From an uncultured Candidatus Saccharibacteria bacterium (GTDB taxonomy: Bacteria; Patescibacteriota; Minisyncoccia; Phycocordibacterales; UBA5272): a stretch of DNA of 64,000 nucleotides. The first letter of the stretch is position 1; every line of letters starts with the position of its first letter. This document shows positions 31,543 to 63,990 of the stretch, one piece after another. The DNA lies in assembly GCA_964443675.1 (NCBI GenBank), contig CAYUDN010000002.1, positions 2,586-66,585 of the forward strand, given 5' to 3'. A model generated the notes under the pieces. It ran no database searches, was not told the DNA's origin, and worked only from the letters and a program-made list of their open reading frames with translations. Made by a program: the position numbers and the translations under genes.

Positions 31543-31644
31543 AACATCTCCTCTATCTAAAAGAATGGGTAAAAACAAACAACAATCAATATCTATTATA
31601 TCACAAAACTTGATAAAAGTCAATGACTGTGCTACACTCCTTAC

Positions 31645-36600: not shown

Positions 36601-36711
36601 GCATGTTTGTTGTCTGTATTCTATATATCTACGCTCTATTATTTCTTTTTCCGTCTTTCACCCAACACCTGCTACCTATTACCTATCACCTATTCATGCT
36701 ACACTACAATC

Positions 36712-39648
36712 ATGCGAAAATTCTCGGTTTTTCTTTGTATCATAACTCTTTCTATCGCTCTTTTTGGTGGGTTTTCTACAATAAAAACATCTGGTGTTGT
36801 TTCAGCTCAAACAAGAGAAAACTTAAATAAATCTACTTATACACACGAAATCGCACAACAACAAGTTCTAAACTTGTTTGATTCTTACCAAAATAATGCA
36901 ATAAACTTTTTAATAGAACAGACAAAAGGATTTACTTCGCAACAAGGAATGGCGGAGGCGAAGGCGCTTGAGGAACTCAAACCAAAACTTACTGCGCTTA
37001 TTTTACAATCTAAAAATATTTATTTAGAAAACTATGATAAATCCTTACCGCCTTGGACAGCACAAATAAACGCAATATCAAAATTACAAGCTTTTTTTGG
37101 TCCCGGTTTTGCAAATTTACGAGTAACATCTAAAGCTGCTGGACTTCTTGCGGTCACTGAAACCTTTAAAGGTAACATAAGGACTGAATTAGAGATAGCG
37201 AAAGCCGTAGAAAGAGGGGAAGGAAGTGGAAACCTAACTTCAAGCACAACTTCTGTAGAGAATGCTGCGAAAACAGTTGCTGCTATTAAAGAAAAATCCG
37301 ATAAAGGAAAATGTACTTTTTGGAACTGGACCATCTCTGATTGTATTTCTGAAGGAGTAACTTGGATTATTAAAGTTGTTTTCCTTCAAATCGCCGGATA
37401 TCTTGTATGGCTCACCGCCAACATGTTCAACTACGCCATGCAATTCGGGGTGCTTGAATTTGCAAAATGGGCACCTAATACTCTTTATCCAATATGGATG
37501 ATAGTAAGGCAAACCATTTCCTTGGTCTTACTTTTTATTGGTATCTATGTGGGGATTTTGTATATCACTGGAGATAACCGTGGTAATTTTGAGCGTTATC
37601 TTCCTTGGTTTGTTATCTTTGCTTTATTTGTTAACTTCTCCTACCCTCTTACAAGAACAGCTATTGATATTTCTAATATCGTAACACTCAAAATGTATGC
37701 AGCAACAATGGGAGAACAAGCGTTATCTGCTAGTATTACCTCCAAAGATACTGCGGGTTTTTTGATCCTACAACGACTCGGTCTTGATAATCTTATTACA
37801 AGCGCAACAGCAGACAGTGCATCAAAAGCGGGAACGAATCTCTATAATTCTATAGACTCTATTCCTGGTGCACTTATTGCGGTAGTGTTTGTGTTCTATA
37901 CCGCATATGTCTTTTTTATGGTAACAGCACTTCTTGTTATGAGAACTGTTGCTCTTGTGTTTATTACCATCGCCTCTCCAATACTTCTTATTGATTCTGT
38001 TATTCCTCTTCTTGGTGATAAAGCAAAAACTGTTCGAGGATTGTTTGTTTCACAACTTTTTGTGGCTCCAGTGTTTGTTATTTTACTTTCGATAACTCTT
38101 AGTTTTATGCAGGTCTTTAGTACACTTAACACTTCATTAACAGGAGCAGCAAAAGGTTCCGGGGAAAGCTCAATAGTTACCTTCTTCAATATCTTGATCA
38201 TGCTCGTAATGCTCACTATTACAGTAAAAGTAACAAAAAGTACCGCCGGCTCTCTTGGGGAACAAGCAACGGAATGGATGGGAAAGGTTGGAGGGTTTGC
38301 AACAGGGGGTGTTGGGGCGCTTGGCCGACAAACACTTGGAAGAGCGGCTGCCAAGTTACGTGACAGCAAGTGGGTAGAAAGGAATCAGAATTCGTTTATT
38401 GGAAGACGAGCGTACGACCTTAGTAACTCCGTTGCGAAGAGTAGCTTTGATCTTCGTAACTCTTCTGTGGTTGCAAAAGGTGCTGGTATGCTTGGTTCAC
38501 AAGGTGGACTCTTTAAGGGTGGAATGGGGCAGGGCGCAAAAACAAACTTTGATGACACTTCCAAAAAACGACAAGAAAAAATCGATGCACGTCTTACAAG
38601 AATCCAAACAAGACATGAGCGCGACGAATATGAAAAGGATGACAAAGGAAAAATTGTCTATGATGCAAACGGCCTTCCAAAAATGAAACACAGAAAGGGG
38701 GATGTTGATCAAGCTGGTGTTGAAGCACGAGACCGTTATGTAGAAAACAAGGGTTCACTTTTTGGTCTTAGTGGTCTCACTGCAAAACAAAAAGAGGAAA
38801 TGGATCAAAAACTCATCGATCAAAAAGAAAAAGAGAGGATGGAAGAATATGGAAAACTAAAAACAAAAGAACAGAAAGCAGCTTACATCGCCAACCTTTC
38901 TCAAGAACTAGAAAAAATAAAAAAAACAAAAGGAGAAGAAAACCTTACTTCTGTTGATGCACGAACTGTCGTAAGTGTACTTCAAAAACTTACCAAACAA
39001 GAAAAAGACAAGCTTGATTCTGGGGCTGCTTACCGTGAAGCGTATAACGAATACAAAAACCTAGAAGACCTTGGGGATGGTGGCAGAAAGATGCGAGAAT
39101 TCTTTGGCAACCAACCAAAAGAAGTGCAAGATTACATTCTTGCAAAAGATCATGGTGAAGCGTTAAAAGATAACGAAAAAATAACAAAACAAAACGAAGA
39201 CAAGGCTTACAGAGAAGCAACTCTACAAAACCAACGAGATGCGGTACAAGCACAAAGAGAATCAACAGAAGTACAAAGAAAGCTCACTGAGGCGCTTAAT
39301 AATAAACAAAACGAGGAAGCAGGAGGAACAACACCTTCTGATAAAGACACAAGAAGGGACAACCCTAACTTCGATACAAGTGGAATGACCTTAGAAACAG
39401 AACGTGCTGCGGAAGCGCGTGTTAGTGGCAAAAAAGAGGAAGAACCTGTTGGAAAACCTGTAAGCTTTGCTTCTACTTCTTCTGGTGGATATGGTGCAAC
39501 GACAGTTACTTTTACCCCACCACAAACTTTTGCTTCACGAATGCAAAAACGAGGAGGCCAGGGGTCGCCTTCGACAGTAACAACTACCACTCCTCCAAAA
39601 AATAATCCTAATACAGAGGCGGAACCGGTAGAGGAGGAAGTTGTGTAG
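36712..39648 (+). CDS. VirB6/TrbL-like polytopic membrane protein with a long charged C-terminal tail
   Basis: Signal peptide, N-terminal extracytoplasmic domain, cluster of about 6-7 TM helices (aa ~240-560), then K/E/Q-rich tail. Architecture and position next to VirB3/VirB4 fit Gram-positive VirB6 analogues. Start taken at ATG 36712. Confidence 0.5.
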   Translation: MRKFSVFLCIITLSIALFGGFSTIKTSGVVSAQTRENLNKSTYTHEIAQQQVLNLFDSYQNNAINFLIEQTKGFTSQQGMAEAKALEELKPKLTALILQSKNIYLENYDKSLPPWTAQINAISKLQAFFGPGFANLRVTSKAAGLLAVTETFKGNIRTELEIAKAVERGEGSGNLTSSTTSVENAAKTVAAIKEKSDKGKCTFWNWTISDCISEGVTWIIKVVFLQIAGYLVWLTANMFNYAMQFGVLEFAKWAPNTLYPIWMIVRQTISLVLLFIGIYVGILYITGDNRGNFERYLPWFVIFALFVNFSYPLTRTAIDISNIVTLKMYAATMGEQALSASITSKDTAGFLILQRLGLDNLITSATADSASKAGTNLYNSIDSIPGALIAVVFVFYTAYVFFMVTALLVMRTVALVFITIASPILLIDSVIPLLGDKAKTVRGLFVSQLFVAPVFVILLSITLSFMQVFSTLNTSLTGAAKGSGESSIVTFFNILIMLVMLTITVKVTKSTAGSLGEQATEWMGKVGGFATGGVGALGRQTLGRAAAKLRDSKWVERNQNSFIGRRAYDLSNSVAKSSFDLRNSSVVAKGAGMLGSQGGLFKGGMGQGAKTNFDDTSKKRQEKIDARLTRIQTRHERDEYEKDDKGKIVYDANGLPKMKHRKGDVDQAGVEARDRYVENKGSLFGLSGLTAKQKEEMDQKLIDQKEKERMEEYGKLKTKEQKAAYIANLSQELEKIKKTKGEENLTSVDARTVVSVLQKLTKQEKDKLDSGAAYREAYNEYKNLEDLGDGGRKMREFFGNQPKEVQDYILAKDHGEALKDNEKITKQNEDKAYREATLQNQRDAVQAQRESTEVQRKLTEALNNKQNEEAGGTTPSDKDTRRDNPNFDTSGMTLETERAAEARVSGKKEEEPVGKPVSFASTSSGGYGATTVTFTPPQTFASRMQKRGGQGSPSTVTTTTPPKNNPNTEAEPVEEEVV

Positions 39649-40632: not shown

Positions 40633-41058
40633 ATGCAATTTCGAGTACCACAATTCATTGATATTGAAGATAAAGTAATCGGACCTTTAACTCTAAAGCA
40701 GTTTGGGTACACTTTAGGTGCAGGAGGTTTCTCATTCCTTATTTGGACCTTTATCCCTATTCATTTTTTGGCGGTTATTTTTATTATTCCAGTAGCAGGA
40801 CTCTTTCTTGCTCTTGCTTTTGTGCAATTTAATAACAGGCCTTTTGGTGCTCTTCTTGAAAGCGCTTTCTCTTATTTTACTAGTGCAAAAATATACACAT
40901 GGAAACAACCTGAACCAGAAAAAATGGAAACTTCTGTTGATCACGTGATCGCATCCACACAAAAAGAAATGATTATAGAAAAAACAAATAGGGATAGAAT
41001 ACATGACATTTCTCTTGGTCTTGATGTGTTCGAAAAAAGTAATGCAAAAGAAGAGTAG
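40633..41058 (+). CDS. VirB3/PrgI-like small membrane protein
   Basis: 141 aa. N-terminal FIDIEDKVIGPLTLKQFGY followed by two TM helices. Position immediately upstream of VirB4. Confidence 0.45.
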   Translation: MQFRVPQFIDIEDKVIGPLTLKQFGYTLGAGGFSFLIWTFIPIHFLAVIFIIPVAGLFLALAFVQFNNRPFGALLESAFSYFTSAKIYTWKQPEPEKMETSVDHVIASTQKEMIIEKTNRDRIHDISLGLDVFEKSNAKEE

Positions 41059-41084
41059 GGGGTAGAAAATAGATACACTTCATT

Positions 41085-41165
41085 ACAGACAACAGAATAC
41101 AGACAAATACACAGGGTGGCCGCTTCGCGGCCACCCTGTGTATTCTGTAAGCGAAGCGGTCTTTT
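41085..41165. repeat. Intergenic palindromic element copy 3 (CACAGGGTGGCCGCTTCGCGGCCACCCTGTG)
   Basis: Perfect 13-bp stem at 41110-41140, followed by GTATTCTGTAAGCGAAGCG as in copy 1. Confidence 0.65.
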
Positions 41166-41216
41166 ATCTGTGTTCTATATATCTACCATCTTATTCTTCT
41201 TCTTTCCTCTTTTCTC

Positions 41217-41858
41217 TTGTATACTACAACAAGTATGGCACAAGGAGCATCAAGTCAACAATTCGTACCAATAGAACGTGTTCGTGATGGGGTAGTCGTC
41301 TTAAAAACCGGAGAACTTCGTTCGGTTCTTATTACCAACTCTCTTAACCTTGGACTAAAAAGTGAAGACGAGCAACAGGCGGTACTTGTTCAGTTCCAAA
41401 ACTTTCTCAACTCTCTTGATTTTCCTGTTCAATTTTTTATTGAATCAAGAAAACTTAACATAAAACCTTATATAGAAATGCTTCAAGAAAGAAGTAAGGA
41501 GGTAAAAGAGGATCTTCTTAAAATTCAAATACATGAGTACATGGGATTTATTACCAAGTTTACCGAGGAAAGCAATATTATGACAAAACACTTTTTTATT
41601 GTTGTTCCTTACTTCAACCCTTCTGCACAAGACATTTCTCCTACTTCTGTGTTTTCTGGAACACTCAAAAACAATATGGGTAAAAGTGACGTTTTTGAAA
41701 CAGCAAGAACACAACTAGAGCAAAGAACTCTCACGGTAATACAAGGACTTTCTCGTTTTGGTATACGAGCACAACGTCTTGGTACAGAGGAAGTTATAGA
41801 GCTTTTTTATAAACTTTTTAATCCAAGCGAAGGTACACATAATGCACCTAAAGTATAA
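41217..41858 (+). CDS. VirB4/TrbE N-terminal domain, separated from the ATPase part by a single in-frame TAA
   Basis: VVLKTGELRSVLITNSLNLGLKSEDEQQAVLVQFQNFLNSLDFPVQFFIE resembles the CagE/TrbE/VirB4 N-terminal domain. Same reading frame as 41862-43688, with TAA at 41856-41858. Confidence 0.7.
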   Translation: MYTTTSMAQGASSQQFVPIERVRDGVVVLKTGELRSVLITNSLNLGLKSEDEQQAVLVQFQNFLNSLDFPVQFFIESRKLNIKPYIEMLQERSKEVKEDLLKIQIHEYMGFITKFTEESNIMTKHFFIVVPYFNPSAQDISPTSVFSGTLKNNMGKSDVFETARTQLEQRTLTVIQGLSRFGIRAQRLGTEEVIELFYKLFNPSEGTHNAPKV

Positions 41859-41861
41859 TAT

Positions 41862-43688
41862 ATGGGACTCTTTGATTTTTTATCACCAAAAACAACAACA
41901 CCATCAGCTTCTCCTGTAACTCCCGTTCTTCCTGAGCAGGTGTACAAAATCGCAGAAATGCAATTAAAGGATATTATTGCACCAAGCGCTCTTGAAATAC
42001 AATCAAAATCTCTTAACCTTGGCACTACTATTGTTCGTTCTTTTTTTGTTATCTCGTATCCTCGTTTTCTTACCGATAGCTGGCTAAGTCCTATAATTAA
42101 CTTGGATAAAGTTTTTGATATAGCTATTCATGTTACCCCACTTAACACAGGGGAGGTTATGAAAACTTTTCAACGTAAAGTTGCAGAAGTAGAAAGCCAG
42201 ATCATGTCTAGAGACGAAAAAGGTCTTGTTCGTGACCCTTCTTTAGATGTTGCGTATCAAGACCTTGAAGATCTTCGTGACGGACTTATTCAAGCGCAAG
42301 AAAAAATGTTTGAAGTTTCTTTATACATAACTCTCTATGGAACAACTAACGAAGAGCTTGATAAAGCTGAAAATGAAATAAAAAATATTCTCGAAAGTAG
42401 ACTTGTATATGTAAAACCAGCCCTTTTCCAACAAGACACAACATTTCTCTCCACACTTCCTCTTGGTGTAGATACTGTTCAAATAAAAAACAAACTTAAC
42501 ACTTCACCACTTTCTTCTTTCTTTCCGTTTGTTTCTTTTGATCTTTCATCTGATAGGGGTATTTTGTACGGACTAAACCGCCACAACGGAAGTCTTATTC
42601 TTTTTGATCGATTCTCTCTTGAAAACTATAACTCTATAGTGTTCGCAAAGTCGGGTTCTGGAAAAAGCTACTTCACTAAACTAGAAATCTTACGTACACT
42701 CATGTTCGACACAGAGGTAATCATCATCGACCCTGAACGTGAGTACGAGTTCCTTGCAGAATCTGTTGGTGGTCGATATTTTGACATCTCTTTGGTCGGT
42801 GAACACCACATTAACCCATTTGATCTTCCTCACCCAACAGAAGATGAATCACCTTCTGAGGTGCTTCGTTCAAATATTGTAAACCTTGTAGGACTCTTCC
42901 GTGTCATGCTTGGAGGTCTTACCCCTGAAGAAGATGCAATTATTGATCAAGCTATTACCGAAACGTACGCACTCAAAGATATTAATGGGGATACAGACTT
43001 CACACAACTCGAACCACCCCTTCTTTCTGATTTTGAAATGGTGCTTACTGGTATAGACGGCTCAGAAAGTCTTGTTCAAAGACTAAGCAAATACACCAAA
43101 GGTACTTGGTCTGGATTTCTTAACCAGCCATCTAATGTTGATATCAATAAAAAACTTGTTTGTTTTTCTATTCGAGACATGGAAGATGAACTTAAGCCTG
43201 TTGCAATGTATCTTATTACTCACTTTATTTGGAACGCAGTACGTAAAACATTACGTAAACGTCTTCTTGTGGTAGATGAAGCGTGGATCATGATGAAAAA
43301 TGACGACACAGCATCATTCCTTTTTGGTCTCGCAAAACGTGGTCGTAAATATTATCTTGGACTTGCAACTATTACTCAAGACGTAGGAGACTTTCTTAAA
43401 TCTCCATACGGACTTCCAATTATTACCAACTCTTCTATTCAAATCCTTCTTAAACAATCTCCTTCTTCTATTGATATTGTTCAAAAAACCTTCAACTTAA
43501 CCGATGAAGAAAAGTTCCTCCTTCTAGAATCTGGAGTAGGGGAAGGAATTTTCTTTGCAGGTCTTAAACACGTAGCCATCAAAGTGGTTGCTTCTTATAC
43601 CGAAGACCAGATTATTACAAGTGATCCTTCACAACTCCTTAAGATTCAACAAATGAAAGACGAAGTTGCTCAGTCAAAATCAGTATGA
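41862..43688 (+). CDS. VirB4/TrbE-family type IV secretion ATPase (C-terminal ATPase portion)
   Basis: Walker A FAKSGSGKSYFTK, Walker B LLVVDEAWIMM, and C-terminal motifs typical of VirB4. Confidence 0.85.
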   Translation: MGLFDFLSPKTTTPSASPVTPVLPEQVYKIAEMQLKDIIAPSALEIQSKSLNLGTTIVRSFFVISYPRFLTDSWLSPIINLDKVFDIAIHVTPLNTGEVMKTFQRKVAEVESQIMSRDEKGLVRDPSLDVAYQDLEDLRDGLIQAQEKMFEVSLYITLYGTTNEELDKAENEIKNILESRLVYVKPALFQQDTTFLSTLPLGVDTVQIKNKLNTSPLSSFFPFVSFDLSSDRGILYGLNRHNGSLILFDRFSLENYNSIVFAKSGSGKSYFTKLEILRTLMFDTEVIIIDPEREYEFLAESVGGRYFDISLVGEHHINPFDLPHPTEDESPSEVLRSNIVNLVGLFRVMLGGLTPEEDAIIDQAITETYALKDINGDTDFTQLEPPLLSDFEMVLTGIDGSESLVQRLSKYTKGTWSGFLNQPSNVDINKKLVCFSIRDMEDELKPVAMYLITHFIWNAVRKTLRKRLLVVDEAWIMMKNDDTASFLFGLAKRGRKYYLGLATITQDVGDFLKSPYGLPIITNSSIQILLKQSPSSIDIVQKTFNLTDEEKFLLLESGVGEGIFFAGLKHVAIKVVASYTEDQIITSDPSQLLKIQQMKDEVAQSKSV

Positions 43689-44670: not shown

Positions 44671-45495
44671 ATGATAAACGTTTCTTATACAGCCCTCGAA
44701 CAATCTTCACTCACCACACTAGGAATACAGTCAGTTTCTTTTAATAGTGGTAATACTTCTTTCTTTTCTGTTATTAGTTTTTTAATGATGCTTTCTTTTA
44801 TTGCGGTTGTTGGTGTTGCTTCTATCATGATAGTAAAAGGGGGAATGTTGCGTATGAAGGCTTCGGAAGAGTCAATACGTTCTTCTAACGAAGTGTTTAG
44901 ACGTGTGGTATTTGGTGTTCTTGGTGTTTTTAGTTTGTTTATTATTATTACCACTATTAATAGTGGGTTAATTACTGGAGATATTGACTTGGGTAAGTTA
45001 AGGGTGGGGTCGTCAGTCGGAACACCATCTACTGCGACTAAAGAAGCTGCTCAACCTCCAGCAAAAGCCGCAAATGCACCGAGCACAGGTTCAGCAAGTT
45101 GGACAAAAGCAATTCAGCAAGACCCAGAAATAAGAGCGCAGCTAAAAAATAACTCCATCTCTGTTAACAAACCAGCATGCACGAGTGAAGGAGCTTCTAG
45201 TTGTACAACTGTTGGAGGGTTACATAAAGACACAATAGATATGCTTATTTCTTTAAGGAAATCTTGTAGCGGAGAAATAGAAATAACAGGGGGAACAGAA
45301 AATGGACACAGGTCTCACGGTATTGATAAAACACCTGTTGATCTTAGTATAAAGGATGGAACACTGAATGCTTGTATTGAAAAGTTTTCAACCGGTCCAA
45401 ATGTTGGAACTTGGTGTAAAAGAACCTTTACCTCTTTTGGATATATTTTTTGTGACGAGAATAGTGCAACACCGCACTGGCATGTGTATAAGTAA
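44671..45495 (+). CDS. Membrane-anchored (two-TM N-terminal module) protein with a C-terminal putative peptidoglycan peptidase-like domain
   Basis: The N-terminal 110 aa are identical to the N-terminus of the 46833 gene. The C-terminus has GG...SH...D and HWH, reminiscent of VanY/M15-type zinc peptidases (weak). Confidence 0.5.
   Translation: MINVSYTALEQSSLTTLGIQSVSFNSGNTSFFSVISFLMMLSFIAVVGVASIMIVKGGMLRMKASEESIRSSNEVFRRVVFGVLGVFSLFIIITTINSGLITGDIDLGKLRVGSSVGTPSTATKEAAQPPAKAANAPSTGSASWTKAIQQDPEIRAQLKNNSISVNKPACTSEGASSCTTVGGLHKDTIDMLISLRKSCSGEIEITGGTENGHRSHGIDKTPVDLSIKDGTLNACIEKFSTGPNVGTWCKRTFTSFGYIFCDENSATPHWHVYK
44691..45011. repeat. 321-bp direct repeat copy A (identical, one mismatch, to 46847-47167)
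   Basis: Nucleotide-level identity covering the shared N-terminal module of two genes. Confidence 0.85.
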
Positions 45496-45535: not shown

Positions 45536-46831
45536 ATGGAAAGTTCTAGTAATAAAAGGATTCTTATTTTGGTTGGTTTTACTCTTTTTTTTGTTATCAT
45601 TGTTCTCGTTTGGTATTTTTTCTATGCAAAACCAGTAATAGACCCAACAAACAACACCACAAGAGATGTAAAGAAAGTTAAAGATCTACCTCCTGGTTTT
45701 CAGTTTATAGAAAAAATCTGGAAAGGTGATCAAACCACAACAACAAAAACAGAAATCATAGATCCTCTCAGTAAACCACTTATTCATGTATGGGATCGTG
45801 GAGCAACAGGAATGTACTTCACCTCCATTCCAATACTTCAAGAAATTAACGCCACAACAACAGAAGGTACAACAACAATTACTGTAAAGAAAACAATTCA
45901 CGCAACATCAAGCGTTCTTATGTTTGTGGACACATTAACAGGGTATGTGTATGGATATGTATTAGATACAGGGAAAATATTCCAAATTACCAACACTTCT
46001 CTTCCTGGAATATCTGATGCGTACATTTGGAACAGTGGTAGAAAAATAATTCTACGTTATATAGATCAAGAAAAAAATAATATTGTCGGAGTTATTGCAA
46101 CTATTGGGACTATTAATCAAAACACAGAACCTTTACCTTTACAAAATATCAAATACCTTAACTCAGAAGTTACTTCTGTTGCGGTTAATAAAACAAAAAC
46201 AGAAGCATCATATATGGTAAGCACAGAAAAAGGAAGTTCTGTGTATACCACAGACGGCGACACTTCTCGTTTTGTTGTTTCTTCTCCTTTTAAAGAATGG
46301 GATCTTTCTTATGGTGGTAATACACTTTACGTAACACCAAAACCTTCTGCGTATGTAGAAGGAAGTACTTTTTCTCTTCCGTATTTTACCTCTGAAATAA
46401 ACAATAAAACAGGTCTTCTGTCTAACCCTGGTGTTTTTGGTGTACTGCTTAGTAGTATGTGGACAGATGACGGGTTACGTACTTTCTTTTCTTCTCATGG
46501 GAATATTTCTGTGCTTCCAATAAAAACACTTGCTACTAAATGTGTTTGGGGTCGCACCTCGTTTGTTGTATGCGCAGTACCAAGAGAACTTCCTGGATAC
46601 ACAGAAGGTCTTCCTGATGATTGGTATCAAGGAAGATACTCTTTTTCTGATGATCTTTTTATTGTTAACCAAAACAATAATGAAAAGTACATGTTATATT
46701 CTTTCTCACAAGAGGATGGAGATTTTGATATTTCTTCTATAGAAACAAATATCGATAACACATTGTATAGTTTTATTAATCAAACAGATCAAAATCTCTG
46801 GCTTCTTAACTCTAACTTACTTGGTGACTAA
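45536..46831 (+). CDS. N-terminally anchored extracytoplasmic protein, hypothetical
   Basis: TM anchor ILILVGFTLFFVIIVLVWYFF; T/N-rich extracellular domain. Confidence 0.45.
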   Translation: MESSSNKRILILVGFTLFFVIIVLVWYFFYAKPVIDPTNNTTRDVKKVKDLPPGFQFIEKIWKGDQTTTTKTEIIDPLSKPLIHVWDRGATGMYFTSIPILQEINATTTEGTTTITVKKTIHATSSVLMFVDTLTGYVYGYVLDTGKIFQITNTSLPGISDAYIWNSGRKIILRYIDQEKNNIVGVIATIGTINQNTEPLPLQNIKYLNSEVTSVAVNKTKTEASYMVSTEKGSSVYTTDGDTSRFVVSSPFKEWDLSYGGNTLYVTPKPSAYVEGSTFSLPYFTSEINNKTGLLSNPGVFGVLLSSMWTDDGLRTFFSSHGNISVLPIKTLATKCVWGRTSFVVCAVPRELPGYTEGLPDDWYQGRYSFSDDLFIVNQNNNEKYMLYSFSQEDGDFDISSIETNIDNTLYSFINQTDQNLWLLNSNLLGD

Positions 46832-46832
46832 A

Positions 46833-47816
46833 ATGATTGAATACAAAGCCCTCGAACAATCTTCACTCACCACACTAGGAATACAGTCAGTTTCTTTTAA
46901 TAGTGGTAATACTTCTTTCTTTTCTGTTATTAGTTTTTTAATGATGCTTTCTTTTATTGCGGTTGTTGGTGTTGCTTCTATCATGATAGTAAAAGGGGGA
47001 ATGTTGCGTATGAAGGCTTCGGAAGAGTCAATACGTTCTTCTAACGAAGTGTTTAGACGTGTGGTATTTGGTGTTCTTGGTGTTTTTAGTTTGTTTATTA
47101 TTATTACCACTATTAATAGTGGGTTAATTACTGGAGATATTGATTTGGGTAAGTTAAGGGTGGGGTCTGGTGATGCTATAACAACAAACAACCTCACCAC
47201 TAAAGAGGTAACAACTTCTTCCAAATCTACCTCTGGAGCAGTTAATGCAGGGTGTCAGAGCAAAGAAATAGTAATTCAAAATATTCAAAACAATGATGCG
47301 TGTAAAGGGGTAAGCTGTTCTGCGTTATTTGGTTGTAATTATTCTTCCTATTTAGCAACCATAGAAAAATATACATCTGGTGATCAAGAGTTAAGAAAAA
47401 TGGCAATTGTAACACTTTGTAAAGAATCAAAAGGTGTACTAACAGCAAATAATAAAAACCCTGACGGAACCTATGATTGTGGTGTTATGCAAATCAACCA
47501 AAAAGATCCTTGTCCTGCTTCGTATGATGTAGATGCTAATATTCAACAAGGAATTAATAAACTACGTTCTCTTAAAAATAATACAAACCAGACATATCCT
47601 GGTTTTCCACGGTGGGGAGGTGTTTTTGCTTCATATAATTGCTGTAGTAATGGAACAGCACCGAACAGTGCAAGTAATGATTGCAACACATCTTCTGGTT
47701 TTCCTGGAAGTGTTCCTAAATGGGGTTGTCCTATTAATCCTGGGGATGGACAATTTAATATGTGCACCGTAAAAAATTACACCTGTGACCTTGTAAAATG
47801 TATGGAGCAGTTATAG
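46833..47816 (+). CDS. Membrane-anchored lytic transglycosylase (VirB1-like SLT domain) sharing its N-terminal module with the 44671 gene
   Basis: SLT family-1 signature: catalytic ES in CKESKG and GVMQIN downstream. N-terminal two-TM module identical to the 44671 protein. ATG at 46833 (track start 46821 is TTG). Confidence 0.6.
   Translation: MIEYKALEQSSLTTLGIQSVSFNSGNTSFFSVISFLMMLSFIAVVGVASIMIVKGGMLRMKASEESIRSSNEVFRRVVFGVLGVFSLFIIITTINSGLITGDIDLGKLRVGSGDAITTNNLTTKEVTTSSKSTSGAVNAGCQSKEIVIQNIQNNDACKGVSCSALFGCNYSSYLATIEKYTSGDQELRKMAIVTLCKESKGVLTANNKNPDGTYDCGVMQINQKDPCPASYDVDANIQQGINKLRSLKNNTNQTYPGFPRWGGVFASYNCCSNGTAPNSASNDCNTSSGFPGSVPKWGCPINPGDGQFNMCTVKNYTCDLVKCMEQL
46847..47167. repeat. 321-bp direct repeat copy B
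   Basis: See copy A at 44691-45011. Confidence 0.85.
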
Positions 47817-57734: not shown

Positions 57735-59465
57735 CTATTCTGAGCCGTAAAGATCAACTACGTGACTAATCTCATCGAAAGAAGTCACCCCGTCTAACAT
57801 TTTTAGTATAGCATCTTCACGAAGTGATGGAATTTTTTGATTTTTTGCAGCAGTACGAACCTCTCTTTCACTAGGGTTAGATACAAGTGTCATTTCTATT
57901 TCTGGTGTCATTACTACCGCCTCAAATATTCCAATGCGGCCTTTGTATCCAGTACCACCACAGGCATCACATCCAGGTGAGTGGTAGAGGGTGTATACCG
58001 GTGAAGGTGTGTGTCCGTTCATAGAACTAGACTTACCAGATGTTTTCATATCTCCTAGTATTGTGGTGATAACACGAGATTCTTTTTCGTTGGATTCATA
58101 CACTTCTTTACACTCAGTGCAAAGTTTACGCACAAGACGTTGTGCAAGTGCAATAGAAAGAGCCCCAGCGATTACTTTTGGATTAACTCCAAGATCGATA
58201 AGTCTTGGAATGGTGCCTGCTGCGTTATTGGTGTGAAGAGTGGAGAACACTAAGTGACCAGTAAGGGCAGCGTTCACTGCGACTTTTGCGGTGTCTTCGT
58301 CACGGATTTCACCAACCATAATCACATCAGGATCTTGTCGAAGTGCTGCACGAAGTCCGGCCACAAAGGTATACCCTTTATCTTCTTCTACTTGTGTTTG
58401 GGTTAGTCCTTCAAGATGATACTCAACAGGATCTTCAATGGTAATAATTTTTACTTCAGGGTTGTAGACATGATGAAGGAATGCATAAAGAGTGGTTGTT
58501 TTACCTGATCCTGTTGGGCCTGTGGTGAGAATAATACCGTGTGGTTTACCAAGTGCATACATAACCGCTTCACGCAAGGTGTCAGGAAAGGCGATTTTAC
58601 CAAGATCGCTTACTGTGTTACGTGGATCAAGAATACGCATTACAAAACTTTCCCCGTAGTTACCAGGCACAAGAGAAACACGGATATCAACCTCCACTTC
58701 ACCAAGGTTAACACTGAACCTTCCGTCTTGAGCTTGTGAAGAATTTGAAAGTTTAAGACCAGAGAGAAGTTTGAGTCGGCTGGTAATATTTTTTTGAAGG
58801 GAAGTAGTAATAAAAGCAATATCTTCAAGTGCTCCGTTGATGCGATATCGTAAACGCACCTTATCTTCTTCTGGTTCGATATGAATGTCACTTGCCGAAA
58901 ACTTAAGCGCCCCAGCCATAATAAGCTCAATAAGTCTTGTGGTTTTGTAAAGAATCTGTGCACCAACCATTTGATCAAAAAAAGCAGTGAGTTCTTGCGT
59001 TGTTTCGAAATGTTGCATGAGTTCATGCATTTTTTCTTCAGTAAGCTCAAGCATGCCACTTTCTACTTTTGAAGCATGAGTAAGATCTTGATAGCGTGCA
59101 AGCACATGGTCTAAAGATGCATGAGAACAAAGGAAAAGAAGAAGCTTTGTTCCTTTATCTTCTATTGGTTTAAGAACAGGTTCTAGTTTTTCAAGAGAAG
59201 GGGAGACGGTTGCGATATAAAGTTTGCGACCAACAAGTTTAAAAGCAACCACACCCGCATCACGCGCTTCTTCTTCGTGAAGATACTGCATTGCGTCTGG
59301 TTCTGGTGCAATACCACGAAGATCGATGTAGGGGAGGTTATATTTATCAGAAAGAACTTTTATTAATTCCTCCTCCTCTTCTTTATGAAGAGCAAGGAGT
59401 TTCTCATTTTGTTTTTCATCATCAAAGAGTATTGTCATGTTTGTAGTATAGCTCAAAGAACACAA
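57735..59465 (-). CDS. Type II/IV secretion / type IV pilus assembly ATPase (GspE/PilB family)
   Basis: N-terminal T2SSE_N-like domain, Walker A ILTTGPTGSGKTTTL, Asp box, Walker B, His box, and the tetracysteine motif (CxxC...CxxC). Confidence 0.9.
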   Translation of the reverse strand: MCSLSYTTNMTILFDDEKQNEKLLALHKEEEEELIKVLSDKYNLPYIDLRGIAPEPDAMQYLHEEEARDAGVVAFKLVGRKLYIATVSPSLEKLEPVLKPIEDKGTKLLLFLCSHASLDHVLARYQDLTHASKVESGMLELTEEKMHELMQHFETTQELTAFFDQMVGAQILYKTTRLIELIMAGALKFSASDIHIEPEEDKVRLRYRINGALEDIAFITTSLQKNITSRLKLLSGLKLSNSSQAQDGRFSVNLGEVEVDIRVSLVPGNYGESFVMRILDPRNTVSDLGKIAFPDTLREAVMYALGKPHGIILTTGPTGSGKTTTLYAFLHHVYNPEVKIITIEDPVEYHLEGLTQTQVEEDKGYTFVAGLRAALRQDPDVIMVGEIRDEDTAKVAVNAALTGHLVFSTLHTNNAAGTIPRLIDLGVNPKVIAGALSIALAQRLVRKLCTECKEVYESNEKESRVITTILGDMKTSGKSSSMNGHTPSPVYTLYHSPGCDACGGTGYKGRIGIFEAVVMTPEIEMTLVSNPSEREVRTAAKNQKIPSLREDAILKMLDGVTSFDEISHVVDLYGSE

Positions 59466-59498: not shown

Positions 59499-59526
59499 TT
59501 GACAAATCTATATTTTTTGATATAAT
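59499..59526 (+). promoter_or_regulatory. Consensus sigma70 promoter TTGACA-16-TATAAT upstream of a GC-rich secreted-protein gene
   Basis: TTGACA at 59499-59504, TATAAT at 59521-59526. Confidence 0.55.
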
Positions 59527-59581: not shown

Positions 59582-60325
59582 ATGTTTGCAACCCGTTTGC
59601 TTTTCACCACTCTCCTTTCTTTGGTTTCTGTGGCGACTTTCGCTCAGAATTTCCAATCTGTGCCGAGCGGGAATGGGGGGATTTACTACTGGCAGACGTC
59701 GCCTGGACCTTCGGTTTCCCAAGTGACACTGATTCGAGAGATTCAACCACAACTCCCGTTCTTGTACCAGCGACAAATGCCTCAACTTTGGGGACAGGGT
59801 GGTATCCAACCTGGATGCCAACTGGTACGAGCGGATCTTTGGAGTCGTATTGCTAATGGTGCCAAGGAAGCATTCTTGGATTCATTGGTGGGAGGGCTTA
59901 CAGGTGCGGTCTCTGATCGCATCAACCGCACAGGTGGACACTGGACCAATATCGGTCTTCATTCTGGACTCGCGGTTGGATTCCTTCAAGGGTCCAGGGA
60001 GCAGTACACGGTGATTTGTCCTAAGGTTGACGACCAAAAACCTGTCATCGGTCAAGGTTCTTGTGTGGTTGGTGGAGAGAACATTGGTAACACCTCTGAG
60101 GAGACTTGTCTCCGTATCAGGAAGCGTTTGACCAAAAATTCCTCTCAGAAGACCTACGATGGTCCACCAAAGGTTGTGAACGATCACACTTGCGCGGTTC
60201 TCGACGAGAAACAGCGTGTCCTTGCTGACTTTCTCGACAAGAACCGCAACCCAAAAGGGATAATGGTTACTTCCGATGAGAGATGTAAAGAGGAGAGGGA
60301 AAACTTCTCCAACAGTTTTCGATAA
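59582..60325 (+). CDS. Secreted protein, GC-rich paralogue 1 (hypothetical)
   Basis: Signal peptide MFATRLLFTTLLSLVSVATFA. C-terminal CAVLDEKQRVLADFLDKNRNPKG...CKEERENF shared with the next gene. Atypical GC3-rich codon usage. Confidence 0.5.
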   Translation: MFATRLLFTTLLSLVSVATFAQNFQSVPSGNGGIYYWQTSPGPSVSQVTLIREIQPQLPFLYQRQMPQLWGQGGIQPGCQLVRADLWSRIANGAKEAFLDSLVGGLTGAVSDRINRTGGHWTNIGLHSGLAVGFLQGSREQYTVICPKVDDQKPVIGQGSCVVGGENIGNTSEETCLRIRKRLTKNSSQKTYDGPPKVVNDHTCAVLDEKQRVLADFLDKNRNPKGIMVTSDERCKEERENFSNSFR

Positions 60326-60343
60326 AACCTATCGACGACACCC

Positions 60344-60375
60344 AGACCCTGCCACAAAGCAGGGTCTTGACTTTT
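60344..60375 (+). terminator. Hairpin AGACCCTGC-CACAAA-GCAGGGTCT plus TTTTTT; overlaps the promoter of the next gene
   Basis: 9-bp stem and T-run. TTGACT...TATACT promoter-like elements immediately follow or overlap. Confidence 0.6.
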
Positions 60376-60469
60376 TTAATATTTCGTGTATACTTATATA
60401 TAAGTTTCCTAAAGTTTAATACTTAAGGAAAACGAAGTTCTCTATAACCGCTCAAAATCGGAGGAATCC

Positions 60470-61291
60470 ATGAGCATTTTCAAAACCCTGATTCTTGCTG
60501 CACTTGTTGCCGTTTCGGCAAACATCCACGCTAACGCCGTGGTTCCGCCTTTGGCAGCGGCAAGTGCTCCAACGCTTTCCGCTGCAGCAGAGGCTCGTGA
60601 CTCTGTCATGGAGGTTTGTCTCAAGATCAAAAAACTGCGCGATACCGCAAAAAGTGACAAGGTTGCGGTGGTCGACAAGGGGCCTCTTTTGCAAGAAGCA
60701 TTGGAATCCGAGCGCCGTCTTGGACTCTCTTGTTCTGGTAGCGGGAAAGCGGCAGCAAAACCACACCCTTCCTCGGACAACGCTGCGGTGCTTGCACAGC
60801 TTCGGTTGGACCTTCAGCAGGCTCGCGAAGCATTGGCTTTGAAGACGAAAACTGACGAGCAGGAGTCTCAAAAGGTCAAAGGGTTGGTTTCCGCGACCGG
60901 TGACAAACTGGTTGAGTGCGGGACCCAGTCGCGAATTGTGTATGTCGGCAACGACGGACAGATGTATGCGACCTGTAAAGGAACCGCAGACGAAATCTTT
61001 CGTGCCCCTCCTCCAGCACCGGTCCCAGCTCCGCACGTGGTCGTAGTTCAACCAGCGAACATCCACCAACTCGGTGGTGTTGCAGTGGTGTCACAAACGA
61101 CGCCTACTCCGACCATTCAACCACAACCCCTGAACTACCCTTGTAAGGTGGTTGATAAGAACAAGAAAGTTCTCGCTGATTTTCTTGACAAGAATGCCAA
61201 CCCATACGGTTTGGTGGCGAAGACAGACATTCAATGCAAGGAAGCGCGTGAACGCTTCATTCAGGAGAATCGTTACATTTTCCTGTATTAA
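60470..61291 (+). CDS. Secreted protein, GC-rich paralogue 2 (hypothetical)
   Basis: Signal peptide MSIFKTLILAALVAVSANIHA. Strong SD GGAGG. C-terminal CKVVDKNKKVLADFLDKNANPYG...CKEARERF paralogous to the preceding gene. Confidence 0.5.
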   Translation: MSIFKTLILAALVAVSANIHANAVVPPLAAASAPTLSAAAEARDSVMEVCLKIKKLRDTAKSDKVAVVDKGPLLQEALESERRLGLSCSGSGKAAAKPHPSSDNAAVLAQLRLDLQQAREALALKTKTDEQESQKVKGLVSATGDKLVECGTQSRIVYVGNDGQMYATCKGTADEIFRAPPPAPVPAPHVVVVQPANIHQLGGVAVVSQTTPTPTIQPQPLNYPCKVVDKNKKVLADFLDKNANPYGLVAKTDIQCKEARERFIQENRYIFLY

Positions 61292-61310: not shown

Positions 61311-61343
61311 AAGACGCCCTTAAAAAGGCGTCTTCTTTTTTCT
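61311..61343 (+). terminator. Hairpin AAGACGCC-CTTAAAAA-GGCGTCTT plus TCTTTTTTCT
   Basis: 8-bp stem followed by a T-run. Confidence 0.65.
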
Positions 61344-61419
61344 AAAAACAGCACTTGACAAGTGGGTAGTATTTATAGTATAATATAGAGACTTTATTGT
61401 AAAAAGTAGTATTAAGAAT

Positions 61420-63990
61420 ATGAAAAAAATTATTAACAAATATTTTGTCACAGCAACCCTCTTTGTAGGAGTTTTGTTTGTTCAGGGTACTTTTCTTGTA
61501 AATGCCGAGTATGACGGCTGGGGAACCGATGTAGTCGACACCAACAACAACGGATGGGGTATTTCTACTGTTGATACATCTAACAATGGTTGGGGAATCT
61601 CTACCGTTGACACTTCTAATAACGGATGGGGTATTTCTACCGTCGACACCAACAACAATGGATGGGGTGTTTCTACTGTTGATACATCTAACAATGGTTG
61701 GGGGATCTCTACTGTTGATACTTCTAATAACGGATGGGGTATTTCTACCGTCGACACCAACAACAACGGATGGGGTGTTTCTACTGTTGATACATCTAAT
61801 AACGGTTGGGGGAATACTACAATCAACACAAGTGGATGGGGTAATACCACTATTCCTTCATATTCTTATACTCCTTCTTACTCCTACACACCTTTTGGTT
61901 TTTCTGGTACCACATACGGAAACACTGTTACTAATATTGTATGTTCAACAGGAACTCTTGTGAACGGTCAGTGTGTTAATACTGTTACAGGTAATATTGT
62001 TACCGTTACTTCTTGTCCTTCAGGAACAGTGGTGAATGGTTCAAATTGTGTGAGCACTGTTAATGGAACTATTGTTACTCGTATTAGTTGCCCTTCAGGA
62101 ACAACACTTAATGGTAACTCTTGTATTAAAACAGTGAGTGGTACTGTTGTTACACAGATTATTTGTCCTTCTGGATCTTCTCTTGTGAATGATAAGTGTA
62201 TCAGTACAGTAACTGGAACAATGGTTACGGTTACTAGTTGTCCAACAGGGACAACACTCAGTGGTACTAATTGTATTAGTAATGTGAATGGTACTGTGGT
62301 GACTCGTGTTAACTGTCCAACAGGAACCACTCTTACGAATGGTCAATGTGTTAACAATGTTAACGGAACAGTGGTTACTAATATCATCTGTCCTTCTGGA
62401 TCAACTCTTACTAACGGTCAGTGTATTAATAATGTGAACGGCACCGTAGTTACAGTAACCAATTGTCCATCAGGTACCACTCTTAGCGGCAATCAGTGTA
62501 TCAACAATATTAACGGTACCGTTGTTACTAACATCAACTGTCCAACAGGAACCACGCTTACCAACGGTCAATGTGTTAACAATGTTAACGGAACAGTGGT
62601 TACTAATATCATCTGCCCTTCTGGGTCAACTCTTACTAATGGTCAGTGTCTTAACACAATTACCGGGGCTGTGGTTACTACTACAGTATGTCCTTCTGGA
62701 TCTTCTCTTGTGAACGGTCAATGTATCACTACAATCACCCCACCAGTAACAACTGTTACTAACTGTCCTTTTAACACCGTATATCGCAACGGATCTTGTC
62801 AGCAGATTGTTAACCCTCCAGTAGTGGTTAACCAGACCTGTTGGGATGGTTCAGTAATTTCTGCTTCGGCAACCTGTGCACCTCAGTACAAAATGTGCGC
62901 CAACGGTACAAGTGTTCCTGTGCATCAACCATGTTATACCACACCAGTATCGACACCAACCTTTGTTACCCCAACAGTGATTACCTTTAACAATGTGGTA
63001 ACTAGTATTGCTACCCAAATTACTTCAACCAGTGGTCGCTGTAATGGAATCGGTCTTGTTGCAAACAACGCCCGCTCAACAGGATGGTTTGAGTATGGAG
63101 ATTCTCCTTCTCTTGGTAAAACAACCGCTTCTGCTGTTATTGGTTCTGCCCCAACTTCTCCTTTCTCAAATGTGCTCGCTAACCTTAAACCTTCAACAAG
63201 ATATTATTGTCGTGCGGTTATGCAGAATGAACATGGTCTTGTAAAAGGTGAAATTGTAAGTTTTGTTACCACAACTAAAGAGGTGAAGTACGTGCAACCT
63301 GTTGTGGTAAAACCTGTAACAACCACAACTACTAAAAAAGTAGTTACAAAAAAGAATGACATTACCTGTTCTGATGGAAGTACTGTTGTAGTAAAGAATG
63401 AAGCAACAGCAACACTTCTTGCTGAAGGTCAGAAACTTATCGCTCTTCAAATTGAAAAAGTTGACGGTAAACTTGCACAAGGTAACACTGTTCACTATAA
63501 AGTGATGTACCGAAACCTTTCAGAAGTTCGTGTGCATAATGTGGTAGTAAAAGTAACTCTTCCTCAAGAGGTGTCATTTGGTGGTGCAACCGCAGGTAAC
63601 TTCGATGAAGGAACAAGAACCCTTACTCTTAACCAAGAAGGCGTTGATCCTTACACTGACAATGCAATTCTTATCACAGGAGTAGTTACAAAAGATGCTC
63701 CCCTTGGAAAAACAATCGTTGCAAATGTATATACACAATACACCGTTCCTGGAACTCCTACCCAAGATGAGGTGAGCGCCTATGTTGTCGGTTCAATTGT
63801 TCCTGATACCACAATCAACAATCAGGATACAGGAGCAAAGAAAGTTGTTGGTGTTGCTTCTGCACATAGCTTTATGCCAAATAGTCTTATTGAATGGCTT
63901 GCGCTTATCGCTATACTCTTTATCATCTTTATTTTAGGAAGAAGTATCTATGCTTCTTATAAGGATGATGAGGGTGATAAACACCATTAG
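61420..63990 (+). CDS. Large surface protein with two tandem-repeat families and a C-terminal TM anchor
   Basis: Signal peptide. About 8 copies of the 13-aa repeat NNGWGISTVDTS(N). About 11-16 copies of a 25-aa Cys-pair repeat (CPSGTTLTNGQCVNNVNGTVVTNII). C-terminal hydrophobic anchor LIEWLALIAILFIIFILG followed by charged residues. Confidence 0.6.
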   Translation: MKKIINKYFVTATLFVGVLFVQGTFLVNAEYDGWGTDVVDTNNNGWGISTVDTSNNGWGISTVDTSNNGWGISTVDTNNNGWGVSTVDTSNNGWGISTVDTSNNGWGISTVDTNNNGWGVSTVDTSNNGWGNTTINTSGWGNTTIPSYSYTPSYSYTPFGFSGTTYGNTVTNIVCSTGTLVNGQCVNTVTGNIVTVTSCPSGTVVNGSNCVSTVNGTIVTRISCPSGTTLNGNSCIKTVSGTVVTQIICPSGSSLVNDKCISTVTGTMVTVTSCPTGTTLSGTNCISNVNGTVVTRVNCPTGTTLTNGQCVNNVNGTVVTNIICPSGSTLTNGQCINNVNGTVVTVTNCPSGTTLSGNQCINNINGTVVTNINCPTGTTLTNGQCVNNVNGTVVTNIICPSGSTLTNGQCLNTITGAVVTTTVCPSGSSLVNGQCITTITPPVTTVTNCPFNTVYRNGSCQQIVNPPVVVNQTCWDGSVISASATCAPQYKMCANGTSVPVHQPCYTTPVSTPTFVTPTVITFNNVVTSIATQITSTSGRCNGIGLVANNARSTGWFEYGDSPSLGKTTASAVIGSAPTSPFSNVLANLKPSTRYYCRAVMQNEHGLVKGEIVSFVTTTKEVKYVQPVVVKPVTTTTTKKVVTKKNDITCSDGSTVVVKNEATATLLAEGQKLIALQIEKVDGKLAQGNTVHYKVMYRNLSEVRVHNVVVKVTLPQEVSFGGATAGNFDEGTRTLTLNQEGVDPYTDNAILITGVVTKDAPLGKTIVANVYTQYTVPGTPTQDEVSAYVVGSIVPDTTINNQDTGAKKVVGVASAHSFMPNSLIEWLALIAILFIIFILGRSIYASYKDDEGDKHH
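61525..61855 (+). repeat. Tandem 39-bp coding repeats (13-aa NNGWG(I/V)STVDTS units)
   Basis: Near-identical 39-nt units visible directly in the nucleotide sequence (…aacaatggttggggaatctctaccgttgacacttct…). Confidence 0.8.
61940..62760 (+). repeat. Tandem ~75-bp coding repeats (25-aa Cys-x-SGTTL-x-NGQC units)
   Basis: Recurrent tgtcc(t/a)tc(t/a)gg...aacggtcagtgt... units. Protein repeats CPSGSTLTNGQCINNVNGTVVTV etc. Confidence 0.75.

Follow-up and report, generated by a model that had tools for sequence, protein, structure and literature searches.

Introduction

Genomic islands acquired by horizontal transfer are known for their atypical composition and codon usage, their sharp boundaries and their secreted products. 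Gly-zipper lipoproteins (PF13441 Gly-zipper_YMGG, PF13488 and SlyB/Pcp-like proteins) carry a Gly-rich amphipathic segment of the G-x-x-x-G type, while proteins with C-terminal anchor or sorting domains (surface-layer homology (SLH), LPXTG, PEP-CTERM and the C-terminal domain of the type IX secretion system (T9SS CTD)) combine a variable passenger with a short conserved C-terminal module and are encoded side by side. Gene conversion biased to GC (gBGC) has been proposed for bacteria, at GC-raised loci with intragenic recombination where all three codon positions are raised (Lassalle et al. 2015, PMC4450053). Here, we describe two adjacent GC-rich genes, termed A and B, in a 64 kb stretch of DNA (the window) from an uncultured Candidatus Saccharibacteria bacterium, which together form a cassette that shares the above traits with each of these systems.

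A preliminary description of the two genes had proposed horizontal acquisition followed by promoter capture, with strong selection for unusual composition as the alternative. We consider it somewhat better than an even chance that A and B form a native, vertically inherited cassette restricted to one clade of ultra-small bacteria belonging to the candidate phyla radiation (CPR), that is, a native and fast-evolving family whose GC-richness is actively maintained.

Layout and Composition of the Two Genes

The chromosome segment covered by the window is AT-rich (39% GC). Genes A and B are flanked in it by pilB, on the minus strand, and by a plus-strand gene that encodes a repeat-rich surface protein. 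The features of the region are as follows, where GC3 is the GC content at third codon positions, ORF an open reading frame, and HMM a hidden Markov model of the C-terminal module that A and B share.

57735–59438, minus strand: pilB, type IV pilus / T2SS-E family ATPase (Pfam T2SSE, E = 1e-115, plus MshEN); GC3 0.28
59499–59526, plus strand: promoter-like site of gene A (TTGACA, 16-nt spacer with TG, TATAAT; 12/12 consensus matches)
59582–60325, plus strand: gene A, A-type cassette gene, 247 aa (ORF; module HMM E = 1.2e-17)
60344–60367, plus strand: terminator-like (intrinsic) hairpin of gene A, 9-bp stem followed by a T-run
60367–60394, plus strand: promoter-like site of gene B (TTGACT, 16-nt spacer, TATACT; 10/12 consensus matches)
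60470–61291, plus strand: gene B, B-type cassette gene, 273 aa (ORF; orthologue alignments; module HMM E = 1.2e-18)
61311–61334, plus strand: terminator-like (intrinsic) hairpin of gene B, from a sequence scan
61355–61384, plus strand: promoter-like site of the surface-protein gene (TTGACA, 18-nt spacer, TATAAT; 12/12)
61420–63990, plus strand: giant surface-protein gene, 856 aa, right flank (ORF, tandem repeats; GC3 0.28)

The coordinates and features reported in the preliminary description match this list, including a promoter and a terminator for each gene: promoter-like sites with the matches given above precede both, and hairpins stand at both 3' ends. The region holds six promoter-like sites, against 2.1 ± 1.2 in shuffles.

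Gene A has a GC content of 0.497 and a GC3 of 0.496, and gene B has 0.526 and 0.522, while the 45 remaining ORFs of the window have a mean GC of 0.388 (standard deviation 0.039) and a mean GC3 of 0.296 (standard deviation 0.073). The two genes thus stand at z = 2.7 to 3.5 against the other ORFs and rank first (B) and third (A) in GC3 among all 47, in agreement with the earlier claim of about 50% GC and GC3-rich codons unlike those of the AT3-rich housekeeping genes. Given their own amino acids and the codon usage of the window, the expected GC3 would be only 0.288 for A and 0.271 for B, indicating that the shift is synonymous and not due to amino-acid content alone. All five codons named in the preliminary description gain in share over the window: CTG (0.15 vs 0.03), GCG (0.29 vs 0.15), CCG (0.19 vs 0.10), TCG (0.14 vs 0.07) and GGG (0.26 vs 0.17). 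A-ending codons are avoided, with GTA falling from 0.29 to 0.04, ATA from 0.22 to 0.04 and AGA from 0.28 to 0.04, and two-fold families favour C. The compositional boundaries of the region are sharp.

Position and Distribution of the Cassette

When 1.84 billion representative proteins were searched exhaustively with an HMMER profile, 12 matched at E ≤ 1e-3; word-index searches gave four relatives of B and one of A. The contigs of 11 of the 12 profile matches, and of P0014 and P0005 from the word-index searches, were read; P0009 was not looked up, and this 577-aa repeat protein, which has only a YVGNDG motif in common, was treated as unrelated. Every contig read showed the same order, namely pilB (−), one to three exported-protein genes (+), the giant surface-protein gene (+), tsaE and polA, the last two being visible only where the contig was long enough. 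The cassette lies between pilB and the surface-protein gene in L001–L009, L012–L021, L023 and L024, which are all the related contigs read. The left flank, divergent from gene A in the window, is likewise pilB in L001, L006, L012, L015 and L017, surface-protein orthologues sit 3' of the cassette in all related loci, and the neighbours of the locus are pilB, ruvB, ruvC, tsaE and polA. The metagenome-assembled genome (MAG) of one clade member is labelled "uncultured Candidatus Saccharibacteria bacterium".

Between lineages, the pilB proteins are 68–84% identical and the B proteins 24–57%, suggesting that the clade is old and that B evolves fast. The tree of gene B is broadly congruent with that of pilB: each pairs the window with L001 as sisters and places L012 farthest away. 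Neither the 1.84 billion representative proteins nor 185,579 species genomes yielded a homologue from beyond the clade; the single genome match elsewhere, in L011 (a "beta proteobacterium" MAG), runs antisense to a histidine-kinase gene and was rejected as spurious. The viral contigs scanned held no relative of the cassette, and a metagenome scan gave no additional locus.

These data bear directly on whether the cassette could be a recent strain- or species-specific island whose native promoters were captured later. The atypical GC and GC3 and the sharp boundaries are what such an island would show, but we regard this origin as very improbable, as the cassette is syntenic in all ten or more lineages read, the B tree follows the pilB tree, and neither a viral copy nor a donor was found in the above searches. 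Nor were hallmarks of mobility seen: scans of the window for tRNA genes and against Rfam found nothing, the locus has no integrase or mobility gene, and att-like flanking repeats are limited to chance-level matches of 12–14 nt. Conservation of the region in synteny across the lineage, which the preliminary description had itself named as evidence contrary to its proposal, was examined and found. Horizontal acquisition with promoter capture was therefore not borne out. What stands of the earlier reading is a pair of exported, Cys-containing partial paralogues of unusual composition with their own promoters and terminators; what falls is the foreign island.

Persistence of the GC Excess

The GC3 of the module-bearing gene lay above that of both flanks in 10 of 10 lineages.

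Window: module-bearing gene 0.52, flanks 0.28
L001: module-bearing gene 0.75, flanks 0.27–0.29
L006: module-bearing gene 0.85, flanks 0.29–0.35
L008: module-bearing gene 0.48, flanks 0.25
L012: module-bearing gene 0.65, flanks 0.34–0.37
L015: module-bearing gene 0.75, flanks 0.40–0.63
L017: module-bearing gene 0.71, flanks 0.22–0.28
L018: module-bearing gene 0.44, flanks 0.31
L019/L020: module-bearing gene 0.71, flanks 0.23
L023: module-bearing gene 0.46, flanks 0.17–0.26

Over nine loci, the differences ranged from +0.13 to +0.53 with a mean of +0.34 (sign test, p = 0.004); L023, the tenth lineage, was added separately. The other occupants of the cassette, namely A-type genes, small Cys-rich lipoproteins and a DUF4407 protein, are also GC-raised. 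The cassette spacers, in contrast, are AT-richer than the adjacent cassette genes (mostly 0.29–0.47 GC), and an apparent exception in L006 (1360–2140, 0.51 GC) holds uncalled coding sequence. GC is raised at first and second codon positions too, and the linkers turn Ala/Thr-rich in those orthologues that are most GC-rich, which points to a broad pressure and not to pure codon selection. In L015, pilB itself has a GC3 of 0.63, against 0.28–0.37 in the other lineages, suggesting a wide range of genomic GC within the clade; its cassette genes are still GC-richer than pilB.

Four-fold degenerate sites of pilB are 43–50% identical between lineages, against 31–33% expected at saturation from composition alone. 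Because these sites are near saturation, about half of an ancestral compositional excess should have been lost per lineage, and with the four-fold GC of the L001 and L006 B genes at 0.72–0.89 the ancestor would have needed more than 100% GC. In addition, the four-fold GC of the sister lineages is 0.43–0.46 (window) and 0.72–0.81 (L001), with a GC3 gap of 0.23, so that no single passively decaying starting value fits both sisters. On this four-fold-site estimate, a rough two-parameter one, and on the sister-lineage gap, passive amelioration of one old transfer was rejected.

The same evidence makes it unlikely that the cassette stems from one ancient transfer from an unsampled high-GC donor into the clade ancestor, followed by slow and uneven amelioration. 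Such a transfer would account for composition that is atypical at all codon positions and would sit well with the other GC-raised accessory genes of the window and L012; moreover, Saccharibacteria live on high-GC Actinobacteria. It is opposed by the lack of any homologue outside the clade in the protein and genome searches, by GC3 values of 0.75–0.85 that are no passive remnant, by the gap between sisters, by spacers that are AT-richer than the genes they separate, and by promoters that fit the sigma-70 consensus. Taken together, the confinement of the GC-richness to coding sequences and its persistence across deeply diverged lineages suggest that it is actively maintained, or raised, by a directional force. 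Strong selection for unusual composition, the alternative named in the preliminary description, thus survives, and the evidence points that way.

Predicted Folding of the Transcripts

Folding was examined with synonymous-codon shuffles, which keep the protein and the codon usage, and is expressed as the z value of the native minimum free energy (16–30 shuffles per gene). In the window, z was −4.7 for A and −3.4 for B, and among B orthologues it was −3.8 (L001), −3.6 (L006), −2.9 (L017), −4.9 (L012) and −5.9 (L008); the native energy was reached by none of 30 synonymous shuffles. The signal was kept when codons were shuffled inside 40-codon blocks (z = −2.8 to −5.2), and dinucleotide shuffles gave −4.2 for B and −3.1 for A. 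The controls, which were pilB, ruvB, dnaA, dnaN, segments of the surface-protein gene, polA and the pilB of L015, gave −1.9 to +0.7, with the GC-rich housekeeping control, L015 pilB, near 0. Twenty-five further window genes had a mean z of −0.72 (standard deviation 1.39), one of them below −3. The excess is diffuse along the coding sequence, and a discrete RNA element as its source was rejected on this ground.

Strong predicted folding would also be expected if the GC-rich segments were not, or not only, protein genes, but structured RNAs or antisense genes. The long antisense ORFs of these segments would fit, and gene callers took the antisense strand in L001 and L006. This is the least probable of the explanations considered: there is no Rfam match in the window, the folding excess is diffuse, the sense proteins are conserved across lineages with signal peptides, Cys residues and in-frame indels, and the antisense ORFs are rich in Arg, Gly and Leu, a bias that spurious ORFs opposite high-GC3 genes typically show.

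The public gene calls concerned, L001 8446–8982 (−) and L006 1425–2123 (−), are both long ORFs on the antisense strand of GC-rich cassette stretches. On the plus strand, L001 8467–8826 and L006 1317–1946 encode small Cys-rich lipoproteins that are homologous between the two loci and have clear signal peptides, with an LGGC lipobox in L001 and a GSGC Cys motif in L006. The plus-strand ORFs are probably the real genes. As a practical point, gene callers mis-annotate this locus through antisense ORFs in its GC-rich stretches.

Recombination at the Locus

Compared with the near-identical strain L005, the window showed 1 difference in the 822 nt of gene B and 1 site at the pilB end. In gene A, 40 differences were found, mostly in two patches at 59689–59771 and 60183–60287; the second patch is the C-terminal module, where divergence reached 19% with many synonymous changes. 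Gene A is therefore a mosaic of imported tracts produced by recombination between near-identical strains. The match between L005 and the window extends across gene B and its terminator and breaks off abruptly at the surface-protein promoter, in the −35 box (61356 onward). This point lies about 30 nt before the contig end, and either a strain-level breakpoint or a branch of the assembly graph is possible.

The modules of A and B in the window have a one-residue insertion and a three-residue deletion in common, which are absent from all other A- and B-type modules, and they group together in the module tree. Recent gene conversion between A and B in the window was nevertheless rejected, because the two modules are only 59% identical in DNA, with synonymous differences even inside the shared VLADFLDKN motif. 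This level of identity suggests that any conversion is old, or that both modules tracked a common partner. Window A is closer to B than L005 A is at 10 against 3 sites, which is not significant.

The GC excess could also be attributed to a recombination hot-spot with gBGC, whether or not alleles are exchanged among clade members that differ in genomic GC. Frequent homologous exchange at a fast-evolving locus for surface proteins would then drive the fixation of AT-to-GC changes, and no selection on the mRNA would be required. We regard this explanation as possible, if rather doubtful. The mosaic in gene A and the concerted evolution of the two window modules favour it, as do the rise in GC at all three codon positions, the Ala/Thr-rich linkers and the range of pilB GC3 within the clade, from 0.28 to 0.63. 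However, GC drops at the boundaries of the coding sequences, in cassette spacers of 110–260 bp, and conversion tracts should ignore such edges unless the spacers are strongly constrained. A GC3 shift of up to +0.5 is also far above the effects usually ascribed to gBGC in bacteria. Furthermore, gBGC does not predict a folding excess over synonymous shuffles, and gene B, with its single difference, carries no trace of recombination in the one strain pair compared.

The Encoded Proteins and Their Shared Module

The C-termini of A and B are identical at 22 of 42 residues (BLASTP, E = 8e-14), so the shared C-terminal module described earlier is real; an HMM scan of all six frames found it nowhere else in the 64 kb window. 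Signal peptides had been assigned to both proteins as well, and a crude check by N-terminal features only gave signal-peptide-like N-termini, which are basic and lead into a hydrophobic core with an 11-residue hydropathy of 2.2 to 2.8; cleavage motifs of the small-x-small kind stand near residues 21–22. Of 17 cassette proteins checked, 16 showed signal-peptide features or a lipobox; the exception was the L006 lipoprotein, whose GSGC falls outside the lipobox pattern used. Export signals of the orthologues are signal peptidase I (SPase-I)-type signal peptides or lipoprotein lipoboxes, and the Cys positions are conserved across orthologues.

The product of gene A consists of a signal peptide (residues 1–22), a Gly-zipper-like segment (residues 97–137; 59870–59992), several Cys pairs and a C-terminal two-Cys module (C204–R247; 60191–60322). 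A-type orthologues, found in L005, L017, L018, L021 and L015, combine a signal peptide or lipobox with the Gly-zipper-like segment, Cys pairs and the module. The product of gene B has a signal peptide (residues 1–21), helical regions with Cys50 and Cys88, a long helix (residues 104–139), a conserved core (ATGDKL..C150..GNDG..C169..HQLGG; 60893–61075), a Pro-rich linker and the C-terminal two-Cys module (C225–C256 and onward; 61142–61288). The B-type layout is accordingly a signal peptide, a two-Cys helical hairpin, a long helix, the core, a Pro-rich linker and the module, with an invariant core of ..GDKL..C..S..GNDG..C.G..D…P.A..HQLGG. The module spans about 45 residues, with the pattern C-x-[VI]-x-[VI]-[DN]-G-K-[VL]-V-A-D-[FY]...N-P-[YE]-G...G-[EA]-G-P-[KR]-C...[RK]-F, and it also occurs at the C-terminus of otherwise unrelated proteins of the same locus that are transmembrane (TM)-anchored or lipoproteins (P0008, P0010, P0012 and P0013). 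In an AlphaFold2 model of B, in which the helical hairpin and the module reach a predicted local distance difference test score (pLDDT) of about 70–81 in 10-residue blocks against a mean of 57, the module is a beta-hairpin plus a helix, at a pLDDT of about 69–80.

From these sequence features, both products are probably exported through Sec and are probably disulfide-stabilised proteins acting at the cell surface or outside the cell. The body of B-type proteins would comprise a helical or coiled-coil region and a small Cys-clamped beta-hairpin core, that of A-type proteins the Gly-zipper-like segment, and the module would be a beta-hairpin and helix closed by one Cys-Cys pair. We infer that the module may serve as a common docking or anchoring domain that targets both proteins to one partner, for which the cell envelope, the adjacent giant surface protein and the host surface are candidates. 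A and B are best regarded as a new family of exported proteins, restricted to this clade and characterised by a C-terminal module that is also new; about 20 of its sequences were found in roughly 15 billion.

Weighing the Explanations for the GC Excess

We propose that selection on the transcript, for a GC-rich, strongly folded and hence long-lived mRNA, would maintain the GC of the coding sequences, with gBGC at a recombination-prone surface-protein locus as the main alternative or a co-contributor. The confinement of the excess to coding sequences, together with the excess folding, favours transcript selection, whereas the evidence of recombination and the shift at all codon positions favour gBGC. 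We rank selection at the mRNA level slightly ahead, and the present data do not separate the two. That base composition at this locus is set by transcript selection and not by ancestry, with a pair of surface-protein genes held at up to 70% GC (GC3 0.85) and bearing a new two-Cys C-terminal docking domain, is accordingly put forward as a tentative reading only.

Neither high expression nor translational selection was accepted as the only cause: the surface-protein gene, whose promoter is just as good, is AT-rich, and the orthologues with a GC3 of 0.75–0.85 also replace T-ending codons.

Several observations weigh against a native cassette whose composition is maintained by transcript selection. 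The surface-protein gene has an equally strong promoter, yet its composition is normal and AT-rich, which means that high expression alone cannot explain the bias. The folding excess consists of minimum free energy values from few shuffles per gene, and it was not seen in the cassette genes of L015 (z = +1.0 and −1.4), while two window genes of normal GC, 27842–29779 (+) at −4.2/−3.7 and 36607–39648 (+) at −4.6, are as strongly folded, so the signal is not exclusive to GC-rich genes. The GC-richer gene of the pair, B, shows no recombination signal in the window/L005 pair, and the amelioration calculation is as rough as stated above. The structural models are weak, with a pLDDT of 57 for B and of 36 for A, the latter built from 2 sequences and unusable. 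Scans of A and B against Pfam (for A, 0 families at E ≤ 1) and NCBIfam gave no significant match, profile searches of the Protein Data Bank (PDB) with the A and B alignments gave nothing below E = 0.05, and the best Foldseek match of the B model in the PDB, at E = 0.88, is meaningless. Finally, four other ORFs of the window have a raised GC3 (0.42–0.52), suggesting that the genome is compositionally somewhat heterogeneous:

14335–15993, minus strand: GC3-raised ORF
17551–18690, plus strand: GC3-raised ORF
29820–30251, minus strand: GC3-raised ORF
30364–31623, minus strand: GC3-raised ORF

Other Genes of the Window and of Related Loci

The four ORFs just listed encode a HATPase_c_3 protein, two proteins without a family match and a lipoprotein-like product of 419 aa. 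The lipoprotein-like ORF has a folding excess of z = −4.5/−2.2 and the HATPase ORF one of −2.4. In L012, two accessory genes outside the cassette are GC-raised (0.53–0.56 vs about 0.44), namely 1187–1795 (+), a PGAP1-like hydrolase gene between ruvC and ruvB, and 15179–15721 (+), which encodes a small protein whose N-terminus is hydrophobic.

The giant surface protein has a signal peptide at the N-terminus and a TM anchor at the C-terminus. In the window, it contains about 7 tandem 36-nt repeats (NNGWG[IV]STVDT[SN]) and about 12 Cys-bracketed 25-aa repeats (CPxGTxLxNGxCxNxVNGTVVT). The orthologues keep the Cys repeats and the anchor, but their N-terminal Tyr/Gly-rich tandem repeats are wholly different, with units such as GYGTSYGST, GGYSYDY, VDYGxYGSG and YDTGTTYPT.

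Elsewhere, the window carries ruvB, dnaA and dnaN, the latter two named from ORF translations and dnaN also through its orthologue in L001. In addition to the pilB-type ATPase gene, a PrgI/VirB4-like secretion cluster is present; this type-IV-secretion-like cluster, at 40633–43688 (+), includes a PrgI family protein (E = 1e-08) as well as a P-loop ATPase of the VirB4/TraG type (E = 3e-25) and is surrounded by large ORFs without a family match. Next to it, 44671–45495 (+) and 46821–47816 (+) encode paralogous membrane proteins (BLASTP, E = 5e-73) whose roughly 110 N-terminal residues, the TM region, are identical and whose C-termini are unrelated, a layout of a conserved anchor with variable heads.

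Significance of the Locus

Horizontal transfer is routinely inferred from atypical composition, and this locus is a clean case to the contrary: its anomaly occurs clade-wide and in synteny, stays within coding sequences and exceeds what an unameliorated remnant could show. If GC-richness and folding are selected, transcript-level selection would reshape whole genes in ultra-small symbionts. Such organisms would then tune the structure or lifetime of an mRNA by wholesale synonymous recoding of a few genes, and "foreign-looking" composition in their genomes could be a native regulatory trait. Some Saccharibacteria are now genetically manipulable, which makes transcript-level selection testable by recoding. 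The proteins themselves form an undescribed and very narrowly distributed exported family, encoded beside a pilus ATPase gene and a giant surface-protein gene, and this narrow range and context make them a reasonable candidate for lineage-specific cell-surface machinery of an episymbiont.

Comparison with Known Systems

Of four hallmarks of genomic islands, the cassette shows one, atypical composition, and lacks sporadic distribution, signs of mobility and donor homologues. It differs from such islands in keeping the same position in all lineages read, with neither mobility genes, a tRNA gene nor flanking repeats, in having no donor homologue that our searches could find, and in being GC-richer, not AT-richer, than the host genome; in addition, its anomaly persists despite near-saturated synonymous divergence. 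From the loci attributed to gBGC it is set apart by a GC3 excess (+0.13 to +0.53) larger than is usual for them, by confinement of the excess to coding sequences and by its coupling with excess folding.

Among protein families, the Gly-zipper lipoproteins come closest to the A-type, and the L015 gene that occupies the corresponding place carries a lipobox and a precomputed match to PF13441. The lipoboxes of the A-type and Gly-zipper genes of L015 read LGGC or VGGC. Gene A of the window, unlike these lipoproteins, has no Pfam match at E ≤ 1, carries an SPase-I-type signal (...VATFAQ-NF) and no lipobox, and adds Cys pairs and the C-terminal module.

The sorting systems share the general plan of the cassette, but neither A nor B matches LPXTG, PEP-CTERM, T9SS CTD or SLH in Pfam or NCBIfam. 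Their module is hydrophilic, has one Cys-Cys pair in place of a hydrophobic helix with a basic tail, and ends in ...ENFSNSFR or ...ENRYIFLY. With type IV pilus components, the sole link is adjacency to pilB, as A and B have ordinary Sec-type N-termini and no Pil homology by Pfam. As for bacteriocin or polymorphic-toxin pairs, no domain of A or B was found in Pfam or NCBIfam, in a search that did not extend to PADLOC and PHROGs, and no candidate immunity gene is evident. The conserved part of A and B is C-terminal, the reverse of the usual layout of polymorphic toxins.

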